A DNA stretch of 64,000 nt from an uncultured Deferribacteres bacterium (GCA_913009825.1 CAJVYQ010000008.1:14484-78483), one strand, 5' to 3'. Numbered from the stretch's first letter, positions 4,030 to 60,354 are shown. The notes: a model not told the origin generated them from the sequence alone. Made by a program: numbers and translations.

Positions 4030-5064
4030 TTATGGAACTTGAGCCGGTTTTCTTTTGTATTTATCTTCTTCCAAAGATAGAGTCAGAGAAATTCTGTAGG
4101 TATTGCCCAAATCCTGATGGCTTAAGAAAGCGGCGTCAAAACGGAGACGGGGTAGTTGTATGCCGGCGCCGGCGGCAAAATGGCCGATATCGTAGCCGGC
4201 GCGAAGGAAAATCACATTGCGGTACCCTGCCTCCAGTCCCGCATGCAAATCCATGCTGACAGGGCCGATATTTTGCTGTGCGGCAAATTTCCTGCCCTCA
4301 AACCGGGTATCCACATCAAAGGCAGGCAAAAACTGAAAATCAGATATATGTACCGGCCAGGCAAACCCCCATTTCAAATTAGGGCTGATCAACTCTTTGT
4401 TCCCCGTATCCCAGGCGATGAGCGTGGTCGTTGCATCCTGCAGATTAACGCCCAATCTCAGATCCCGGTAAACCGGCATTAACAGGCCAATATCGAAGCC
4501 AACTCCCCAGGCGCTGTTTACATCCACCGATTTCCGGATCATTTTAATATTACCGCCCAACCAGATATTTGCGCGCCATTTCTTCGCATACGAAAAATAC
4601 CCCACATATTCAATATCGTTGGCATTATGGTCGATGACGGGCACATTGCGTATTTTCTGACCTGTGTTATCTTCAAAAACAGCATTCAGCGGTAAATCCG
4701 GATTTTTCAAAACAGTGAAAGGAATATCATCAATCCCCATGCGCATCAACCCAAAAGAGAGGCTGGATTCCGCTTTAAAAGGGAGCGCAACAACGGCAAA
4801 ATTGTTTTTCACTACACCGGCAAATCTTTCGGCGTACATCAGGTGAATTTCCGGATACTGCAGCCGCGCCAGTCCGGCAGGGTTCCAATAAGAAGCAATA
4901 CTGCCATCCGCTACCGCCACAAATGCACCACCCATACCAAGCGCTCTGGGCCCGGTACCCACACTCATCAACTCACCTGCATATTTAGCAATATGCTGAG
5001 CCTGAACAAAACCGGTGAAAAAAAACAAAGCAGTACAACCAAAAAGGAAGTTTCGTATTTTCAT
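4030..5064 (-). CDS. Outer-membrane beta-barrel protein with signal peptide. Its family is uncertain; it may be PorV/UPF0164-like.
   Basis: The N-terminus MKIRNFLFGCTALFFFTGFVQAQ is a cleavable signal peptide. The body is beta-rich with alternating hydrophobic residues. The motif LGMGGAFVAVADGSIASYWNPAGLA near the N-terminus is typical of a group of diderm OMPs. Confidence 0.6.
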   Translation of the reverse strand: MKIRNFLFGCTALFFFTGFVQAQHIAKYAGELMSVGTGPRALGMGGAFVAVADGSIASYWNPAGLARLQYPEIHLMYAERFAGVVKNNFAVVALPFKAESSLSFGLMRMGIDDIPFTVLKNPDLPLNAVFEDNTGQKIRNVPVIDHNANDIEYVGYFSYAKKWRANIWLGGNIKMIRKSVDVNSAWGVGFDIGLLMPVYRDLRLGVNLQDATTTLIAWDTGNKELISPNLKWGFAWPVHISDFQFLPAFDVDTRFEGRKFAAQQNIGPVSMDLHAGLEAGYRNVIFLRAGYDIGHFAAGAGIQLPRLRFDAAFLSHQDLGNTYRISLTLSLEEDKYKRKPAQVP

Positions 5065-5144
5065 CGTCTATTCCAAAGTTTCAGTCTTTCCAATGTTAAA
5101 CCGGAAATCAGTGAAAAAGATTCCAACTTTCTTCGCTCCGGAAT

Positions 5145-5462
5145 TTATGATTTGATCATGGTCAGTACCATTTTCATTTTCTCCATCGCCTTCAATCCAT
5201 GAGGTTCATCGGCGGGCATAATGATCATATCCTCTTTTTCTAAAATATACGATTCGCCGGAAATGGAGATATCCACTTTGCCATCAAGAACATACACCAT
5301 GGCATCGAAGGGCGACGTATGTTCGCTGAGCGCCTGCCCTTTATCAAAGGCAAACAGAGTAACAATGCCGGTTTTTCTTTCAATCAGTGCTTTACTGACA
5401 ATGGAATCGGTTTGGTAATCAATCATTCCGGATAATTTTTGCGCCGTCATTTTTTCGCTCAT
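5145..5462 (-). CDS. Cupin-domain protein
   Basis: The 105-aa product has the cupin-2 barrel pattern (GQALSEHTSPFDAMVYVLDGKVDISISGESYILEKEDMIIMPADEPHGLKA). Confidence 0.7.
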   Translation of the reverse strand: MSEKMTAQKLSGMIDYQTDSIVSKALIERKTGIVTLFAFDKGQALSEHTSPFDAMVYVLDGKVDISISGESYILEKEDMIIMPADEPHGLKAMEKMKMVLTMIKS

Positions 5463-8116
5463 TATTTTCCTCCGTTTGCCATCTTTTTTAATTCGGCTAA
5501 TTTGGTTAAGGCCTGAAGCGGCGTTAAGTTATTGATATCGATTTCATGCAACTGCTGTTTAAACCGGTTCTCTTCTTTGCGAATGAAAAGATCCAATTGA
5601 GAAGAGCCGTTTTTCTGATTTGTTTTCGAACTGCGCGCCAATCTGGGTTGATGAGAAGGTGTCAGTTCATCATTTTCCAGGTTTGCCAGCACTTCACGGG
5701 CGCGGGCAATGACATGCTCCGGCAACCCCGCCAACCGGGCAACCTGAATTCCATAGCTGTGATCACAGCCGCCCGCCACAATTTTACGCAGGAATACTAT
5801 CTGATCTCCCCATTCCTTGACATCCACATTGTAATTTTTTACCCGGGGCAGAATCAGCGCCAACTCGGTCAATTCGTGATAATGGGTGGCGAACAGTGTT
5901 TTCGCGGCAACTTTTGGGTGATTGTGCAGATATTCCGCAACAGACCAGGCGATGGATAACCCATCAAATGTGGAGGTGCCGCGGCCGATCTCATCCAATA
6001 AAATCAAACTTTCGTGGGTAGCGTTGTTCAAGATATTCGCCATTTCGTTCATCTCCACCAAAAATGTGGATTCGCCGCCGGCCAGGTTGTCCGACGCTCC
6101 CACTCTGGTAAAAATCCGGTCTACTATGCCGATAACGGCGGATTTTGCCGGCACAAAGCTGCCCATCTGCGCCAAAAGTGTGATTAAACCAACCTGACGA
6201 ATATAGGTTGATTTCCCGGCCATATTCGGTCCGGTGATGATCAGCACCTGTTCCTCACCGGTGGATAAAAAGGTGTCGTTGGGAATAAATTGCTCGCCCA
6301 CGGGAAGCAAATTCTCCACTACGGGATGTCGTCCTTCTTTAATCTCGATAGTTTCGCCGTCATTGATAACCGGTTTTACATAATTTTCCGACCCGGCAAC
6401 TTCGGACAGGGAACGAACCACATCAAGTTGCGCAATCAAACGGGCGTTGTTCTGAATTACCGCCGATTGATCGGATATTTTTTGCCGGATATCTTCGAAA
6501 AGTTCATACTCAAGCGCCGCCATTTTTTCTTCTGCAGTCAGAACTTTTTCCTCGTACTCCTTCAGATCGGGCGTAATATACCGCTCCGCATTGACCAGCG
6601 TCTGTTTGCGAATGTAACTCTCCGGAACTTTGGTCAGGTGAGTTTTTGTTACTTCGATATAATAACCGAAAACTTTATTGTAGCCCACTTTAAGCGACGG
6701 AATTCCGGTTTTTTCCCGCTCCATTTCCTGCAGCGTGGCGATCCATTTCTTGCCGGAAAAAGCAATTTTACGATATTCATCCAGATCCCCATTGTAGCCT
6801 TCCCTGATCAATCTGCCTTCAGTAATGGTAATGGGCGGATCGTCCGTCACGGCGCGTTCAATTAAATCGGCCGTGTCTTGCAGGGGTTGTAGATTGCTGC
6901 AGATCCGTTTCACAAAATGCGATTCCATTTTCTGTAAAAGCTGTTTGATTTCCGGCAATTTCAACAAGGAATCCTTCAGCGCATTAAAATCCCGGCCGTT
7001 GCCGCGCCGGGCGGAAATTTTTGAAATCAGCCGCTCCGGATCACCGATGGATTTCAGCATTTTTTGCAGATCAGAGCGAAGATCGACCGAGTGGAATAAT
7101 TCTTCAACGGCATCCAGGCGGGCATTGATCTCCCGGACACTGCGTAATGGGAATTGAATCCAGTTTCGCAGCAAGCGCCCGCCCATTGGTGTGATAGTGC
7201 GGTCGATGATAGAAATCAGACTGCCTTCTTTACGTTCGCCCATCAGGGTAGTCAGAATCTCCAGATTGCGCAAAGTGGCCGGATCCAAAATCATGTATTG
7301 ACCGGGATAAGTTCGGTTCAACTGCCGGATGTGGCTCAATTCCGATTTTTTGTTCTCCTGCAGATAGTGAAACAGTACGCCCGCCGCACTGATTCCCGCA
7401 TCCAAATCTTCACAGCCAAATCCTTTCAACGAGGAAGTTTTAAAATGACGAGTGAGAGTTTCGTAAGCGAAGGTGTAAGAGAATAACCATTCTTCGAGCC
7501 TGGTGATGGTAAAATTGAGAATGTTGCGGACGTTTTTCTTCAAAAAGTCGGATTGTTCCCCGGAAACCAGAACTTCGGAAGGCTGGGAATTGAGCACATA
7601 ATCCTGCACATCTTTCAGCGAAAATTCGGTTACGGAAAATTCACCGGTGGTAAGATCGGCTTTGGCCAGGCCACAAATTTCACCCTTAAAATAAACAGAA
7701 ACCAGAAAATTATTCCGCTTGCTCTCCAGCATATCATCGGAGAAAACCGTGCCCGGCGTAACAACTTCGATCACTTCCCGCTTGACGATGGTTTTGGCTT
7801 TTTTCGGGTCTTCCACCTGCTCACAAATGGCCACCTTGTAGCCGGCTTTCACCATTTTGGCCAGGTAGCCCTGGACGGAGTGATGGGGAAATCCTGCCAG
7901 GGGAACAGCGCCCGAAGTGCCGTGGCCTCGTGAAGTTAGCGTCAAGCCTAAAACTTTCGAGGCGATCTTTGCGTCCTCAAAAAATAACTCGAAAAAATCG
8001 CCCATCCGAAAAAAGAGAATCTGCTCTTTATGTTTATTTTTGATAGACCAATATTGCTCCATCAAAGGGGTGATGTCAGCCATCGAATTCTTTCGTTCGT
8101 TTGTGTTAAAAATCAC
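5462..8116 (-). CDS. mutS: DNA mismatch repair protein MutS
   Basis: The 884-aa product has the mismatch-binding N-terminus (ITPLMEQYWSIKNKHKEQILFFRMGDFFELFFEDA), the Walker A motif GPNMAGKSTYIRQV, and STFLVEMNE followed by DEIGRGTSTFDGLSIA. The true start is probably the MADITPL Met at about 8086. Confidence 0.93.
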   Translation of the reverse strand: MIFNTNERKNSMADITPLMEQYWSIKNKHKEQILFFRMGDFFELFFEDAKIASKVLGLTLTSRGHGTSGAVPLAGFPHHSVQGYLAKMVKAGYKVAICEQVEDPKKAKTIVKREVIEVVTPGTVFSDDMLESKRNNFLVSVYFKGEICGLAKADLTTGEFSVTEFSLKDVQDYVLNSQPSEVLVSGEQSDFLKKNVRNILNFTITRLEEWLFSYTFAYETLTRHFKTSSLKGFGCEDLDAGISAAGVLFHYLQENKKSELSHIRQLNRTYPGQYMILDPATLRNLEILTTLMGERKEGSLISIIDRTITPMGGRLLRNWIQFPLRSVREINARLDAVEELFHSVDLRSDLQKMLKSIGDPERLISKISARRGNGRDFNALKDSLLKLPEIKQLLQKMESHFVKRICSNLQPLQDTADLIERAVTDDPPITITEGRLIREGYNGDLDEYRKIAFSGKKWIATLQEMEREKTGIPSLKVGYNKVFGYYIEVTKTHLTKVPESYIRKQTLVNAERYITPDLKEYEEKVLTAEEKMAALEYELFEDIRQKISDQSAVIQNNARLIAQLDVVRSLSEVAGSENYVKPVINDGETIEIKEGRHPVVENLLPVGEQFIPNDTFLSTGEEQVLIITGPNMAGKSTYIRQVGLITLLAQMGSFVPAKSAVIGIVDRIFTRVGASDNLAGGESTFLVEMNEMANILNNATHESLILLDEIGRGTSTFDGLSIAWSVAEYLHNHPKVAAKTLFATHYHELTELALILPRVKNYNVDVKEWGDQIVFLRKIVAGGCDHSYGIQVARLAGLPEHVIARAREVLANLENDELTPSHQPRLARSSKTNQKNGSSQLDLFIRKEENRFKQQLHEIDINNLTPLQALTKLAELKKMANGGK

Positions 8117-29568: not shown

Positions 29569-29885
29569 CTCAGCCCGCCTGATAGTGAACCATCAGGCTA
29601 AGAAAAGGCAGCGCTATAAATAGCGCTGCCGGGCAGGATGCTTTAGCATCCTTTTTACTCTCAGCCCCGTGGTTCTCCACGGGGCGCCATGGCATAGATT
29701 GAGTGCTTTCTTTTTAACCCGACTGAATCAGCTCAGCCCGCCTGATAGTGAACCATCAGGCTAAGAAAAGGAAGCGCTATAAATAGCGCTGCCGGGCAGG
29801 ATGCTTTAGCATCCTTTTTACTCTCAGCCCCGTGGTTCACCACGGGGCGCCATGGCTTAGCCAGGCAGCCCGCTCGAAAGTCGGG
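29569..29885. repeat. Tandem duplication of two roughly 163-bp units of a multi-hairpin element (family 5)
   Basis: Unit 1 is about 29569-29731 and unit 2 about 29732-29885, and they are about 97% identical. Each unit carries four hairpins: cctgatagtgaaccatcagg, cagcgctataaatagcgctg, ggatgctttagcatcc and ccccgtggttctccacgggg. A related single unit sits inside 39205-39363. Confidence 0.85.
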
Positions 29886-32737: not shown

Positions 32738-32992
32738 TCATGATATTTCAATGGCAAAATCGGGACATTCTATCTCGCAAAGCATACATTTTGTACACTT
32801 TTCCAGATCGATGACTTCCACCACATAGCCCTCCCACTTGGCCGGGTCTTTGCGCATTGCCAATACATTTTGCGGACAAACATCCACACAAATGTCGCAT
32901 GCCTTACAATTCTCATTGATAATTTCAATTTTTGCAGGAGATTTATCTTTCTTTTTTGCCGCCTTTGGAGCAGCAACAGCTGCATCTGCCAT
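32738..32992 (-). CDS. 2-oxoacid:ferredoxin oxidoreductase delta subunit (2x[4Fe-4S] ferredoxin)
   Basis: The 84-aa product has two CxxCxxCxxxCP motifs (CKACDICVDVCP, CTKCMLCEIECP). Confidence 0.85.
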   Translation of the reverse strand: MADAAVAAPKAAKKKDKSPAKIEIINENCKACDICVDVCPQNVLAMRKDPAKWEGYVVEVIDLEKCTKCMLCEIECPDFAIEIS

Positions 32993-33037
32993 AATCTAAC
33001 TCCTTTTAATGATAAAATCATTTTAGTTCGACAACAG

Positions 33038-33313
33038 TTAATCCAACTTTTTTAAATGTTCGATTATATTTTTTTTTGTAATCTCATCAAAATCATTTCC
33101 GTACATTCTCAAAAACAACAATTCCCGAAATTCTTTCCCGGACAGCTTTGGCGGAAACGAGGAAATTGTTATTTCTCTGGCCATATCATACATTGAAATC
33201 CCCATCATAAACCGCTCTTCATTCGATCGGTTCATGATCATTTCTCTGAATCTCTTTTTTATATGCTCCGGTGTATCATTCATGACAACATTCCAAGTAC
33301 AAGTCATAAACAC
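33038..33313 (-). CDS. Hypothetical 91-aa protein, partner of the nucleotidyltransferase (possible TA or defence pair component)
   Basis: It overlaps the upstream NTase gene by 38 nt and is AT-rich. I recognise no conserved domain. Confidence 0.4.
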   Translation of the reverse strand: MFMTCTWNVVMNDTPEHIKKRFREMIMNRSNEERFMMGISMYDMAREITISSFPPKLSGKEFRELLFLRMYGNDFDEITKKNIIEHLKKLD

Positions 33314-33818
33314 TTAAATTCTTGGCCCATTTTTGCACATAGTTTAAATCATATTTCCCGGACAAAAGATTTTTAATATCATTCATTTGCATTTCAGAAT
33401 GAGAATCCATGGCCCATAGTAATTTAGATAAAATCAAATCTTCTAAACTGACATAAAACGTTTCAAAATCGCTAATTTTTTTCTTTTTCCTTCGTTTAAA
33501 CTCATTACGGTGAAACTCATCATCTTTTCGAATTATGCAATCAATTTTTATAACACTCTGATTGTTTATCATATTAAACATCGAATAATACTTAATTGAA
33601 TCTTTTAATGCATCTTCAGAAATATAATAGTCATCTTTAAACAGATCAAAAAATCTTGATGCTTCTGCTAAAGATAACTCAATTACAATATCAATATCAC
33701 GTGTCATCCTTGGTAAAACATAATAATTCATTGCAACTGATCCGGTGATCATAAAAGGGATGCCTGCATTTATTAACTTTTCAGACACATCCTGAATTAT
33801 TTTAAGTTCATAATTCAT
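33276..33818 (-). CDS. Minimal nucleotidyltransferase-fold protein (MNT/AbiEii-like)
   Basis: It has the GS...DxD motif [24 protein letters not shown]. The 180-aa product is markedly AT-rich relative to its neighbours and is inserted between korD and sucD. Confidence 0.55.
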
Positions 33819-34692
33819 AAACTTTCATCGCCTTTTGAACCGTAACCCCAATTTCCGCGGGACTTTCCACAACATGGATACCCGCCGCTTTCAACGCTTT
33901 CATTTTATCGGCTGCGCTTCCTTTACCGCCGGAAATGATGGCGCCGGCATGCCCCATTCTACGCCCCGGAGGTGCCGTACGGCCGGCAACAAAACCGACC
34001 ACCGGTTTGTCCACATTTTTTTTAACAAATTCCGCGGCTTCCTCTTCGGCGGTACCGCCGATTTCACCAATCAGCACAACCGCTTTTGTATCGTTATCTT
34101 TTTGATAATAGGCCAATGCATCGACAAAAGTGGTACCGATTACCGGATCGCCGCCAATACCGATACAAGTAGACTGGCCGATTCCCAATCCGGCAAGTTG
34201 ATGAACCGCTTCGTAGGTCAAAGTTCCGCTGCGGGAAATAACGCCAACCGGCCCGGGTATATGAATAAAACCCGGCATAATGCCGACTTTACATTTTCCC
34301 GGAGAAATGATTCCCGGGCAATTCGGACCAATTAAACGAGCAATGCGGGAAAGCAGGTAATTTTTTACATTCACCATGTCCACGGTGGGAATCCCTTCCG
34401 TGATGCACACAACCAATTTCACGCCAGCGTCGGCAGCTTCCATAATGGCATCGGCAGCAAAAGGCGGCGGCACAAAAATAACCGATGTGTTCGCACCTTC
34501 TTCCTCCACCGCTTCCGCAACTGTGTTGAAAATAGGAACTTTATCATCAAATTTCCGGCCTCCCTTTCCGGGAGTAACACCGGCGACAACCTGAGTACCG
34601 TATTCTATCATCTGTTTAGTATGAAAAGAACCTTCTCCACCGGTAATTCCTTGTACCACCAATCGAATCGATTCGTCAATGAGAATGCTCAA
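33808..34692 (-). CDS. sucD: Succinyl-CoA synthetase alpha subunit
   Basis: It has the CoA-binding and phospho-His regions ([10 protein letters not shown] ... [14 protein letters not shown]). Confidence 0.93.
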
Positions 34693-35989: not shown

Positions 35990-36094
35990 CCTGAATTGAG
36001 CGATTCTAATGTCATTCCGTAGGAATCTTGTTAATTTATTGCTAATATTTAAAAAGATTCCTCCTGAATGACATGAGAATTGCTCAATTTAGGT
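35990..36094. repeat. Family-2 MITE copy (about 105 bp) abutting and providing the 3' end of the hepT remnant
   Basis: Its first 43 nt (cctgaattgagcgattctaatgtcattccgtaggaatcttgtt) are identical to the right end of the 32538-32693 copy. The right terminus gaatgacatgagaattgctcaatttaggt overlaps the hepT stop codon at 36089-36091. Confidence 0.75.
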
Positions 36095-36409
36095 ATCACA
36101 TACTTCGAAAATCACCTCTGCATTAATTTCAAAATAGTGATGACTAATAATATCATGCATCACCCTGGCTCCTTTCCAATTGATATCAGCATACAGGGAA
36201 AGAAGTTTTCCGTTGGTAATTTTATCAAAATTTTTCAGACTCTCTCCGACAGCAATTAATTGCATACAAATTGAATCTAATTTTTCCATACCGGCAGGAG
36301 AATTTGTAAAATCGGCAACATTATTTAGCGGTATAAATCTATCTCATATAATGTCCAATGACTTGAGAATTTGAGAAAGAATTTCAGAGACAAGTTCTCT
36401 ATCATACAT
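36089..36409 (-). pseudogene. hepT: HepT (DUF86, HEPN RNase) toxin gene interrupted by an in-frame TGA and with its C-terminus running into a MITE terminus
   Basis: The ATG at 36409-36407 overlaps the mntA stop. It reads MYDRELVSEILSQILKSLDII, then TGA at 36346-36344, and the same frame continues DRFIPLNNVADFTNSPAGMEKLDSIC...INWKGARVMHDIISHHYFEINAEVIFEVCDT with the HEPN Rx4-6H motif. Other genes in the window terminate on TGA, so recoding is unlikely. Confidence 0.65.
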
Positions 36410-36704
36410 CAATAACATCCCGTTCGATTCTTTTTTTCAATTGAATATTCATTCCATCACGCAATCGGATAGTATCCACTTTAACACCAAAATAGTCTTC
36501 CAGATCAACTTTAATACTACCCAGAAGAAATAAGTCCGGCTTTTTCTGTTCAACAATAATATCGATATCACTTTGTTGATCAAATGTTCCTCTCGCCACC
36601 GATCCAAAAACACCAATTTTCACAAACTGATATTTTCCTTGATATTTGTTTTTATATGGCTTTATTTTTCTTAAAATTTCAGATTGATTCATTGACAAAC
36701 TCAT
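36402..36704 (-). CDS. mntA: MntA-type minimal nucleotidyltransferase antitoxin
   Basis: The 100-aa product has the motif GVFGSVARGTFDQQSDIDIIVE (GS...DxD) and is immediately upstream of, and overlapping, the DUF86 gene. Confidence 0.8.
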   Translation of the reverse strand: MSLSMNQSEILRKIKPYKNKYQGKYQFVKIGVFGSVARGTFDQQSDIDIIVEQKKPDLFLLGSIKVDLEDYFGVKVDTIRLRDGMNIQLKKRIERDVIDV

Positions 36705-59745: not shown

Positions 59746-60354
59746 TTAAAAAATGATTTTCATGCCGAGACGTAAAGAATACGGAAGTGAATCTGACGAA
59801 TATGACTGGTTCCTAAAAAATATTCCGGGAACAATAAAGTAAGCACGATACAACCTTACAGATTTGGACAATCCCAATAAATAATAAAAATGTAATCTGG
59901 ACTCAGAATTGACCAATATGTATTGAAATTGATTGAATCGGTCCCGTTCAATTACTTGATCAGTTGATTGTACATACACACCTAAACCAAGAGAAAAGAG
60001 TTTAAAAACAGTTGAACTCAAATATATTGCATAATCCTTTCTGTCCCCGGATTTTAATGGAATGCGCGACATACTATCGCCAAAGTTATATTGATGATAA
60101 GTATACTCAAAAAATGCATGAACAGAGATTTTCAAGAAATCATATCCATAACCAAACCTGCAAACAAAATGTGGTTCAAAGTCACCACTATAAGAGACAC
60201 GAAAAGGATAAGCGCCCATATCCAGAATAATGCTTTTGTTGATATGGTTGGTACTATCCACATCAGTCAGAGAAAAGGAGATTTTTTTTGAATATAAATT
60301 GCTTGTTCCAGACAGGATAAATAACAGAATAAAACAGCTTTTTATTATTCTCAT
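59746..60354 (-). CDS. Small outer-membrane beta-barrel protein (about 180-aa mature, probably 8 strands), low-GC
   Basis: It has the signal peptide MRIIKSCFILLFILSGTSNLYS, alternating hydrophobic beta-strand periodicity, a C-terminal ...LRLGMKIIF ending in Phe, and a markedly AT-rich ORF and upstream region. Confidence 0.6.
   Translation of the reverse strand: MRIIKSCFILLFILSGTSNLYSKKISFSLTDVDSTNHINKSIILDMGAYPFRVSYSGDFEPHFVCRFGYGYDFLKISVHAFFEYTYHQYNFGDSMSRIPLKSGDRKDYAIYLSSTVFKLFSLGLGVYVQSTDQVIERDRFNQFQYILVNSESRLHFYYLLGLSKSVRLYRAYFIVPGIFFRNQSYSSDSLPYSLRLGMKIIF

Follow-up and report, generated by a model that had tools for sequence, protein, structure and literature searches.

A probable MenT1-like toxin–antitoxin cassette with inverted gene order between sucD and korD of an uncultured Deferribacteres bacterium

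A 64,000-nt stretch of DNA from an uncultured Deferribacteres bacterium (GCA_913009825.1, CAJVYQ010000008.1:14484-78483; hereafter the window) carries, between the sucD and korD genes, a pair of small AT-rich genes encoding a 180-aa nucleotidyltransferase (NTase) and an 81-aa helical partner. We regard this insert as probably a horizontally acquired, promoter-less toxin–antitoxin (TA) cassette of the MenT/AbiEii nucleotidyltransferase class, whose closest characterized relative is MenAT1 of Mycobacterium tuberculosis and in which the order of the two genes is inverted. The pair has the generic hallmarks of type II-like TA systems, consisting of two small, adjacent, co-directional genes that are linked, overlapping, patchily distributed and compositionally foreign. 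It is most likely to be classed as a MenT1-like variant of a known TA type, widespread yet uncharacterized. An earlier examination of the window from its sequence alone (the sequence-only reading) had suggested an undescribed TA-like or defense pair; the TA hallmarks and the conserved pairing agree with this suggestion, but "undescribed" was too strong a word, as the closest solved relative is MenT1.

A MenT1-like nucleotidyltransferase

The NTase contains G26-S27 followed, after 13 residues, by D41-I-D43, which is the GS-x9-13-DxD motif that the sequence-only reading had recognized in a 180-aa protein between sucD and korD. An AF2 model made with 32 family members (pLDDT 90.8) predicts six strands of at least three residues and then four C-terminal helices (residues 125-179). 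In a Foldseek search of the Protein Data Bank (PDB), the best neighbors of the model were MenT1 alone or with MenA1 (8an5_A, 8an4; E 6e-8 to 3e-7, probability 1.0, TM 0.71/0.67), and MenT1/MenAT1 chains ranked ahead of ANT(2''), LnuA and TM1012. The NTase sequence alone found no match in the PDB; only the family profile reached MenT1, retrieving 8an4 at E 4.5e-7. The sequences of MenT1 (Rv0078A) and its antitoxin MenA1 (Rv0078B) were recovered for comparison from an M. tuberculosis contig (L168), and hhalign of the NTase family against MenT1 gave a probability of 94.9% and E 4.8e-8 over 149 columns. MenT1 itself scores 38.7 bits against the Pfam AbiEii model, and some members of the NTase family have pre-computed PF08843 hits. 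No NCBIfam family matched the NTase at E <= 1.

The active site agrees residue by residue. T39, D41 and D43 of the NTase have the same numbering as in MenT1, and K132 and D147 align with MenT1 K137 and D152 with their 15-residue spacing kept. Of 82 NTase homologues, 81 keep all five residues, the exception being one D41Y, and T39 is invariant in the full set of 82. Toxicity of MenT1 requires D41, K137 and D152, whereas T39 is dispensable (Xu et al. 2023, PMC10435456) and is the residue at which MenT1 auto-phosphorylates when induced by its antitoxin (Arrowsmith et al. 2024, PMC11375011). The fold of MenT1 has been described, with C-terminal motifs III and IV marking the DUF1814 family (PMC10435456). 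As judged from profiles and the predicted structure, the NTase is best described as a remote homologue of the M. tuberculosis toxin MenT1, within the MenT/AbiEii fold class.

The family to which the NTase belongs is large and tightly conserved. Proteins of about 180 aa form 3,285 clusters at 90% identity, the window protein being about 50-58% identical to the best 120 listed. At least 577 loci were found in species-representative genomes, mostly, among the matches listed, in Verrucomicrobiota, Acidobacteriota, Proteobacteria, Ignavibacteria and Nitrospirae, and the partner family comprises 1,364 representatives at 50% identity. No homologue of the cassette was present in 50,697 phage records or 2.9 million viral contigs. 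Plasmids yielded six distant homologues only (26-35% identity), and the two that were inspected had different neighbors and no annotated small gene downstream. Several NTase family members have faint pre-computed hits to DUF6036 (PF19502) and DUF2204 (PF09970); in the literature library searched, no paper refers to DUF6036, PF19502 or PF18993, the last being the MenA1 family.

An invariably paired small partner

Pairing was assessed in 85 loci with an NTase homologue, 84 of which were informative, as the contig of the 85th ends 24 nt past the NTase stop. A match to the partner profile lies downstream of the NTase in 84/84, nearly always immediately adjacent. According to the sequence-only reading, lack of conservation of the small ORF beside any NTase homologue would speak against the pair, and these counts show the opposite. 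Distance matrices of the NTase and the partner are strongly correlated (Mantel r = 0.86; maximum over 999 permutations 0.32), and the sequences thus compared show an invariable and co-evolving pair. The only locus in which the two genes are not adjacent is L061, where about 850 nt (about 5510-6359) of a short-period repeat encoding LGTGYWVLGTG-like units intervene.

The sequence-only reading had described the second gene as a 91-aa ORF overlapping the NTase by 38 nt. Such an ORF exists as the maximal one (33313-33038, minus strand, GTG start), but the 38-nt overlap is an artefact of taking the longest frame, and the real overlap is 8 nt. The start codon of the partner is most probably ATG 33283 (81 aa; 8-nt ATGAATGA overlap) and not GTG 33313, because this ATG is used by gene callers on identical contigs and is conserved among homologues. 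A recognizable MxDT start is present in 76 partners; the overlap with the NTase stop measures 8 nt in 36 of these and 4 nt in another 36 (72/76 in all). The ATGAATGA junction has the form expected of translational coupling between NTase and partner.

An AF2 model of the partner (pLDDT 89.8) predicts helices at residues 5-17, 21-41, 49-64 and 67-79. The N-terminus, M-N/T-D-T-S/P-P-E, is nearly invariant and includes T4; R24, S42, R59 and Y61 are likewise nearly invariant. Eight of 39 partners match PF18993 at E < 0.1, all in one register (partner about 17-58 to profile 1-42), although the window partner itself has no such match. In this register MenA1 L12, L14 and V19, which contact MenT1 (PMC10435456), fall on the hydrophobic residues M27, I29 and M34 of the window partner. 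Kinship of the partner with PF18993 is suggestive, not established.

Insertion into the suc-kor operon

The lower GC content noted in the sequence-only reading was borne out by windowed GC and by GC at third codon positions (GC3). The GC content of the 781-nt cassette region is 30.3%, while the window averages 44.9% (sd 4.1; z = -3.6); the region is the lowest-GC stretch of the window and falls in the lowest 0.03% of same-size windows. GC3 of the NTase is 0.27, compared with 0.44-0.51 for sucC, sucD, korA, korB and korG and 0.38 for korD. ORFs of at least 60 aa with less than 36% GC are confined to the cassette pair, a MntA/HepT-like pair at 36.1-36.7 kb, 979-1293, 59746-60354 and short ORFs overlapping these regions.

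Scanning metagenomes with KorD yielded 80 kor loci from distant relatives (KorD identity <=57%); in the closest of them (L088), SucC, SucD and KorA are 63-64% identical to those of the window. A complete sucD lies directly upstream of korD in 49/80, with a median gap of 264 nt. Neither cassette gene occurs in any of the 80 loci, including the 49 with complete sucD-korD synteny, all from relatives of no more than 64% identity. Exact look-ups of KorD and SucD found only strain-identical contigs, all with the cassette. The cassette elsewhere adjoins unrelated genes in Verrucomicrobiota, Acidobacteriota, Proteobacteria, Ignavibacteria, Nitrospirae and others. The sucCD-korDABG arrangement therefore appears to be old and widespread and the NTase-partner pair lineage-specific. 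Absence from the kor loci, anomalous composition and unrelated neighbors elsewhere together support horizontal insertion, so that the pair is probably a foreign, AT-rich insert, as the sequence-only reading had proposed.

The same junction holds other inserts in distant relatives: a protein of about 351 aa that is OmpA-like (L141, L149), a membrane/coiled-coil protein of about 225 aa (L145, L158, L160) or a CxxC metal-binding-like protein of about 92 aa (L099, L100, L102, L122, L123, L132, L134, L167). In these relatives the AT content at the junction is often lower than elsewhere in the locus. The sucD-korD junction seems permissive for insertions.

Organization of the locus

All genes of the suc-kor region are on the minus strand, in the order sucC, sucD, NTase, partner, korD, korA, korB, korG (Table 1). 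SucC, SucD and the alpha subunit of the oxidoreductase exceed their NCBIfam cut-offs; the delta, beta and gamma subunits find their best matches in 2-oxoglutarate/2-oxoacid oxidoreductase models, with scores under the respective cut-offs. Residues 1-290 of SucD align with positions 1-289 of a 291-position NCBIfam profile, and the final Y-E-L-stop of sucD is supplied by the cassette. The NTase start overlaps sucD by 11 nt and the partner stop is 45 nt from korD, so the cassette has no room for a promoter of its own. The junctions are overlapping or short, and no terminator was detectable in them. The AAAGGAG in the spacer is likely to be the ribosome-binding site of korD.

Table 1. Genes and junctions of the suc-kor region in the window
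Feature	Position	Strand	Basis or remarks
sucC	35896-34736	-	above NCBIfam cut-off
sucD, upstream host gene	33808-34692	-	NCBIfam NF004230, 455.7 bits vs cut-off 336
11-nt overlap of NTase start with last codons and stop of sucD	33808-33818	-	sequence
MenT1-like NTase, 180 aa, putative toxin	33276-33818	-	ORF; G26-S27, T39, D41, D43, K132, D147
ATGAATGA overlap of NTase stop and partner start, 8 nt	33276-33283	-	sequence
small partner, 81 aa (MNDTPEH...), predicted four-helix, putative antitoxin	33038-33283	-	start at ATG 33283
spacer from partner stop to korD ATG, 45 nt	32993-33037	-	sequence; has AAAGGAG
korD/oorD-type 2x[4Fe-4S] delta subunit, downstream host gene	32738-32992	-	Pfam Fer4 families; best NCBIfam OorD/OGOR_delta, below cut-off
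korA, korB, korG	32454-29890	-	ORFs

Three further features of the region were observed. A sigma-70-like site, TTGATG-16-TATAAT (10/12; 33063-33090, minus strand), is found within the last part of the partner gene, some 70 nt before korD. It scores best of the 7.5 kb scanned, but amounts to no more than agreement with a consensus in AT-rich DNA, and might have no bearing on a host of Bacteroidota type. From this site the cassette could drive korDABG. Between korG and an ndk-like gene, a 129-nt direct repeat occurs twice (29569-29697 and 29732-29860; 98% identical, spaced 163 nt), with terminator-like hairpins inside each copy. A second AT-rich island (36089-36704, minus strand; 31-33% GC) encodes a 100-aa MntA-like NTase (36704-36402; PF01909/PF18765; PADLOC PDC-S09, E 2e-20), followed via an ATGA overlap by a HepT-like gene with an in-frame TGA at codon 22. 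This second pair looks like a decayed type VII toxin gene beside an intact antitoxin gene.

Docking on housekeeping genes and flanking repeats

In 45 of 81 related loci an ORF of the same direction precedes the NTase, whose start is -4 to +50 nt from the stop of that ORF. The genes docked upon are often conserved housekeeping genes, among them ilvD, pheS (Pfam-confirmed) and thiC-like, typA-like and moxR-like genes, and this docking appears to mirror the placement of the cassette on sucD. Direct repeats flank the cassette in 15 of 77 testable loci, scoring above 150/150 control segment pairs, and in nine of these 15 the repeats are no more than 60 nt from either end of the cassette. Upstream, the repeat consists of the final 44-363 nt of the host gene, stop codon included; downstream, this segment recurs as a second copy that begins -1 to +14 nt from the partner stop. 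The two are 83-96% identical, with mismatches often clustered near the repeat 3' end. Around the window cassette itself, no flanking repeat of the sucD 3' end rose above shuffle level. In 80 loci, the cassette ends showed neither a recombinase gene nor a conserved non-coding motif, and a literature search for TA cassettes with duplicated gene ends returned nothing relevant.

Cassettes bracketed by imperfect repeats include those of L001, L006-L008, L016, L017, L029-L031, L034, L040, L055 and L077; the 3' ends duplicated in these loci belong to ilvD, pheS, moxR-like, thiC-like and other genes. In L001, the cassette and its ilvD repeat are closely followed by an orphan gene for an 80-aa PF18993 protein (Rv0078B-family, 37 bits; 5001-5243), after which comes a gene for a PEP-CTERM protein and not for an NTase.

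Single-crossover integration of a circular molecule made of the cassette plus one repeat would produce the observed repeat structure. It is possible, if doubtful, that the cassette is an undescribed mobile TA element without promoter or recombinase, which docks at, or a few nucleotides from, housekeeping stop codons and duplicates 44-363 nt of the 3' end of its target. Were this the case, the host gene and the start region of the downstream gene would stay intact while their transcription is borrowed. The repeats could then permit the cassette to be excised as a circle and, through homologous recombination, to enter the same gene again in other genomes.

Assignment of roles and alternative explanations

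By analogy with MenT1, the NTase would act as the toxin, adding nucleotides to the 3' acceptor ends of tRNA and so blocking aminoacylation and translation. The cassette would presumably be read from the sucCD-korDABG transcript, and the 81-aa helical partner, as the putative antitoxin, would be translated by coupling or re-initiation at the overlapping ATGAATGA junction. The partner may neutralize the NTase by direct binding, possibly via induced auto-phosphorylation of T39, as MenA1 acts on MenT1. The assignment of the NTase as toxin is supported by three cases of decay. One locus (L076, 5001-5552 and downstream) carries the D41Y change, the sole catalytic substitution among the 82 NTases, and its partner has lost the M-x-D-T start by frame disruption. 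In two other proteins, P0256 (234 aa) and P0317 (219 aa), a single ORF joins an NTase that stops short after the K132 region to a complete partner. Neither retains D147, and at the position of K132 one has E and the other a deletion. These two look like toxin-inactivating deletions that spared the antitoxin.

Several results weigh against a MenT1-like TA cassette. Identity between the NTase and MenT1 is only about 17%, the NTase scores 18.7 bits (E 1.7e-3) against Pfam AbiEii (PF08843), below the 22.5 cut-off, and a profile of its C-terminal half alone found no match in the PDB, MenT1 included. For the partners, all PF18993 scores are under the 27.1-bit cut-off (best 20.8). An hhalign comparison of the partner family with MenA1 was not significant, nor was that with the orphan PF18993 protein of L001 (26%). 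Foldseek found no significant PDB neighbor of the partner model and did not retrieve the MenA1 chain of 8an5, and four helices are predicted in the partner versus two in MenA1. Gene order is opposite to that of MenAT1, and the evidence from toxin decay comes from three cases only. With regard to the insertion, no empty sucD-korD site was found in a close relative, none of the loci retrieved being more than 64% identical to the host.

An NTase gene followed by an overlapping small partner gene is the exact order of MntA-HepT, as seen at 36704-36089 in the same window, and the roles might be reversed as in that type VII system, with the NTase an antitoxin that modifies (e.g. nucleotidylates) a small-protein toxin. 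HepT carries a modified acceptor Tyr, and the near-invariant T4, R24, S42, R59 and Y61 of the partner could include an acceptor residue. We consider such a reversal quite improbable. The NTase has no match to the MntA-type families PF01909, PF18765 and NF047752, and its nearest relative by structure and profile is a toxin; the partner has neither an Rx4-6H motif nor a recognizable enzymatic fold and is not a HEPN protein: PF01934 is not matched, and the alignment of partners shows no conserved His. Moreover, P0256 and P0317 combine intact partners with catalytically damaged NTases, which should be lethal were the partner the toxin. The same biochemistry could instead serve phage defense rather than selfish addiction, since the NTase falls into the fold class of AbiEii, has weak AbiEii matches in Pfam and PADLOC, and lies 2.3 kb from the second AT-rich, defense-type pair (MntA/HepT-like, PADLOC PDC-S09); AbiE is an abortive-infection system (PMC10435456). 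A defense role is nevertheless rather unlikely for a cassette that stands outside defense islands, alone within housekeeping operons here and in most related loci, and that has no convincing PADLOC model match (E 0.015). Its absence from the phage and viral collections is neutral in this respect.

It is very unlikely that the NTase is a small-molecule enzyme of the ANT(2'')-Ia or LnuA resistance type, or of the TM1012 type, accompanied by an unrelated accessory ORF. Foldseek does list ANT(2'')-Ia, LnuA and TM1012 (E 8e-5 to 8e-4, TM about 0.55-0.64), which are of similar size; the four MenT1/MenAT1 chains of 8an4 and 8an5 match more strongly by a factor of about 1,000 or more. No NCBIfam resistance model is matched even at E = 1, K132 and D147 correspond to the catalytic K137 and D152 of MenT1 in the DUF1814 motifs III and IV, and an invariably coupled, co-evolving partner is foreign to resistance NTases. 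We accordingly rejected the antibiotic NTases (ANT, Lnu) as an identification. Embedding in the operon by overlapping or short junctions, with no detectable terminator and no room for a promoter, would also suit native accessory subunits or regulators of succinyl-CoA synthetase or of the 2-oxoglutarate:ferredoxin oxidoreductase. This is scarcely tenable for a pair that is missing from all 49 syntenic sucD-korD loci and from the whole set of 80 kor loci, that follows ilvD, pheS, thiC-like, typA-like and many other genes elsewhere, and whose composition is far from that of the operon.

Implications

Toxins of the MenT/AbiEii class have been studied mainly in M. tuberculosis and Streptococcus, and the present locus suggests that a very large MenT1-like branch has gone unannotated, in which the putative toxin is minimal (180 aa), the small partner is of another kind and the operon is inverted. 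The branch offers a comparison by which the generality of antitoxin-induced T39 auto-phosphorylation can be assessed, and in it one can ask how placing the toxin gene first, with translational coupling, controls the toxin-to-antitoxin ratio. A cassette placed within essential operons, together with the duplicated 3' ends of host genes, could reveal how TA systems spread without a visible mobility gene. Interest would be greater still if the docking and duplication pattern were a new mobility route.

Comparison with known systems

The uncharacterized NTases of DUF6036 (PF19502) and DUF2204 (PF09970) resemble the window NTase in their size of about 180 aa, but the window NTase matches neither family at E <= 1. 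MntA/HepT (type VII) shares the layout, with the NTase gene first and an overlapping small partner second; unlike MntA, the window NTase belongs to another clade (no PF01909, PF18765 or MntA match), and the roles are probably opposite. The sequence-only reading had taken the gene order to be the reverse of both MntA/HepT and AbiEi/AbiEii. It is the reverse of the latter, but not of MntA/HepT.

AbiEi-type antitoxin genes lie upstream of the toxin gene. The toxins of the AbiEi/AbiEii and MenAT3/MenAT4 systems (DUF1814, PF08843; type IV/VII TA and abortive-infection systems) belong to the same NTase superfamily and share motifs I-IV with the window NTase, which matches PF08843 weakly. Their toxins are of about 290 aa (MenT3/TglT chain 6j7q, 290 residues) versus 180 aa here. 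AbiEi-type antitoxins (COG5340 family) have a winged-helix DNA-binding domain and a C-terminal kinase-like domain (PMC10435456), whereas the partner described here has 81 aa, is encoded downstream and lacks a winged-helix domain.

MenAT1 (Rv0078B-Rv0078A; PDB 8AN4, 8AN5, 8RR5) provides the best structural and profile match. Antitoxin-first order was reported in 15/21 cases (PMC10435456), and in the M. tuberculosis contig (L168) the MenA1 gene (157-363) precedes that of MenT1 (from 360); here the NTase is first, as it is in 84/84 related loci. The partner is longer than MenA1, has the N-terminal M-N/T-D-T-S/P-P-E motif and four predicted helices versus two, and matches PF18993 only below threshold. 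The hosts are environmental Verrucomicrobiota, Acidobacteriota, Bacteroidota-like lineages and others, not Actinobacteria. MenA1 binds MenT1 as a 2:1 heterotrimer. It induces auto-phosphorylation of T39 (PMC11375011). In common with MenAT1, the window pair combines a bi-lobed NTase, predicted to have a beta-sheet lobe and a four-helix bundle and to place T39, D41, D43 and the catalytic K and D at equivalent positions, with an overlapping gene for a very small helical partner that has no DNA-binding domain (68 aa in MenA1, 81 aa here).

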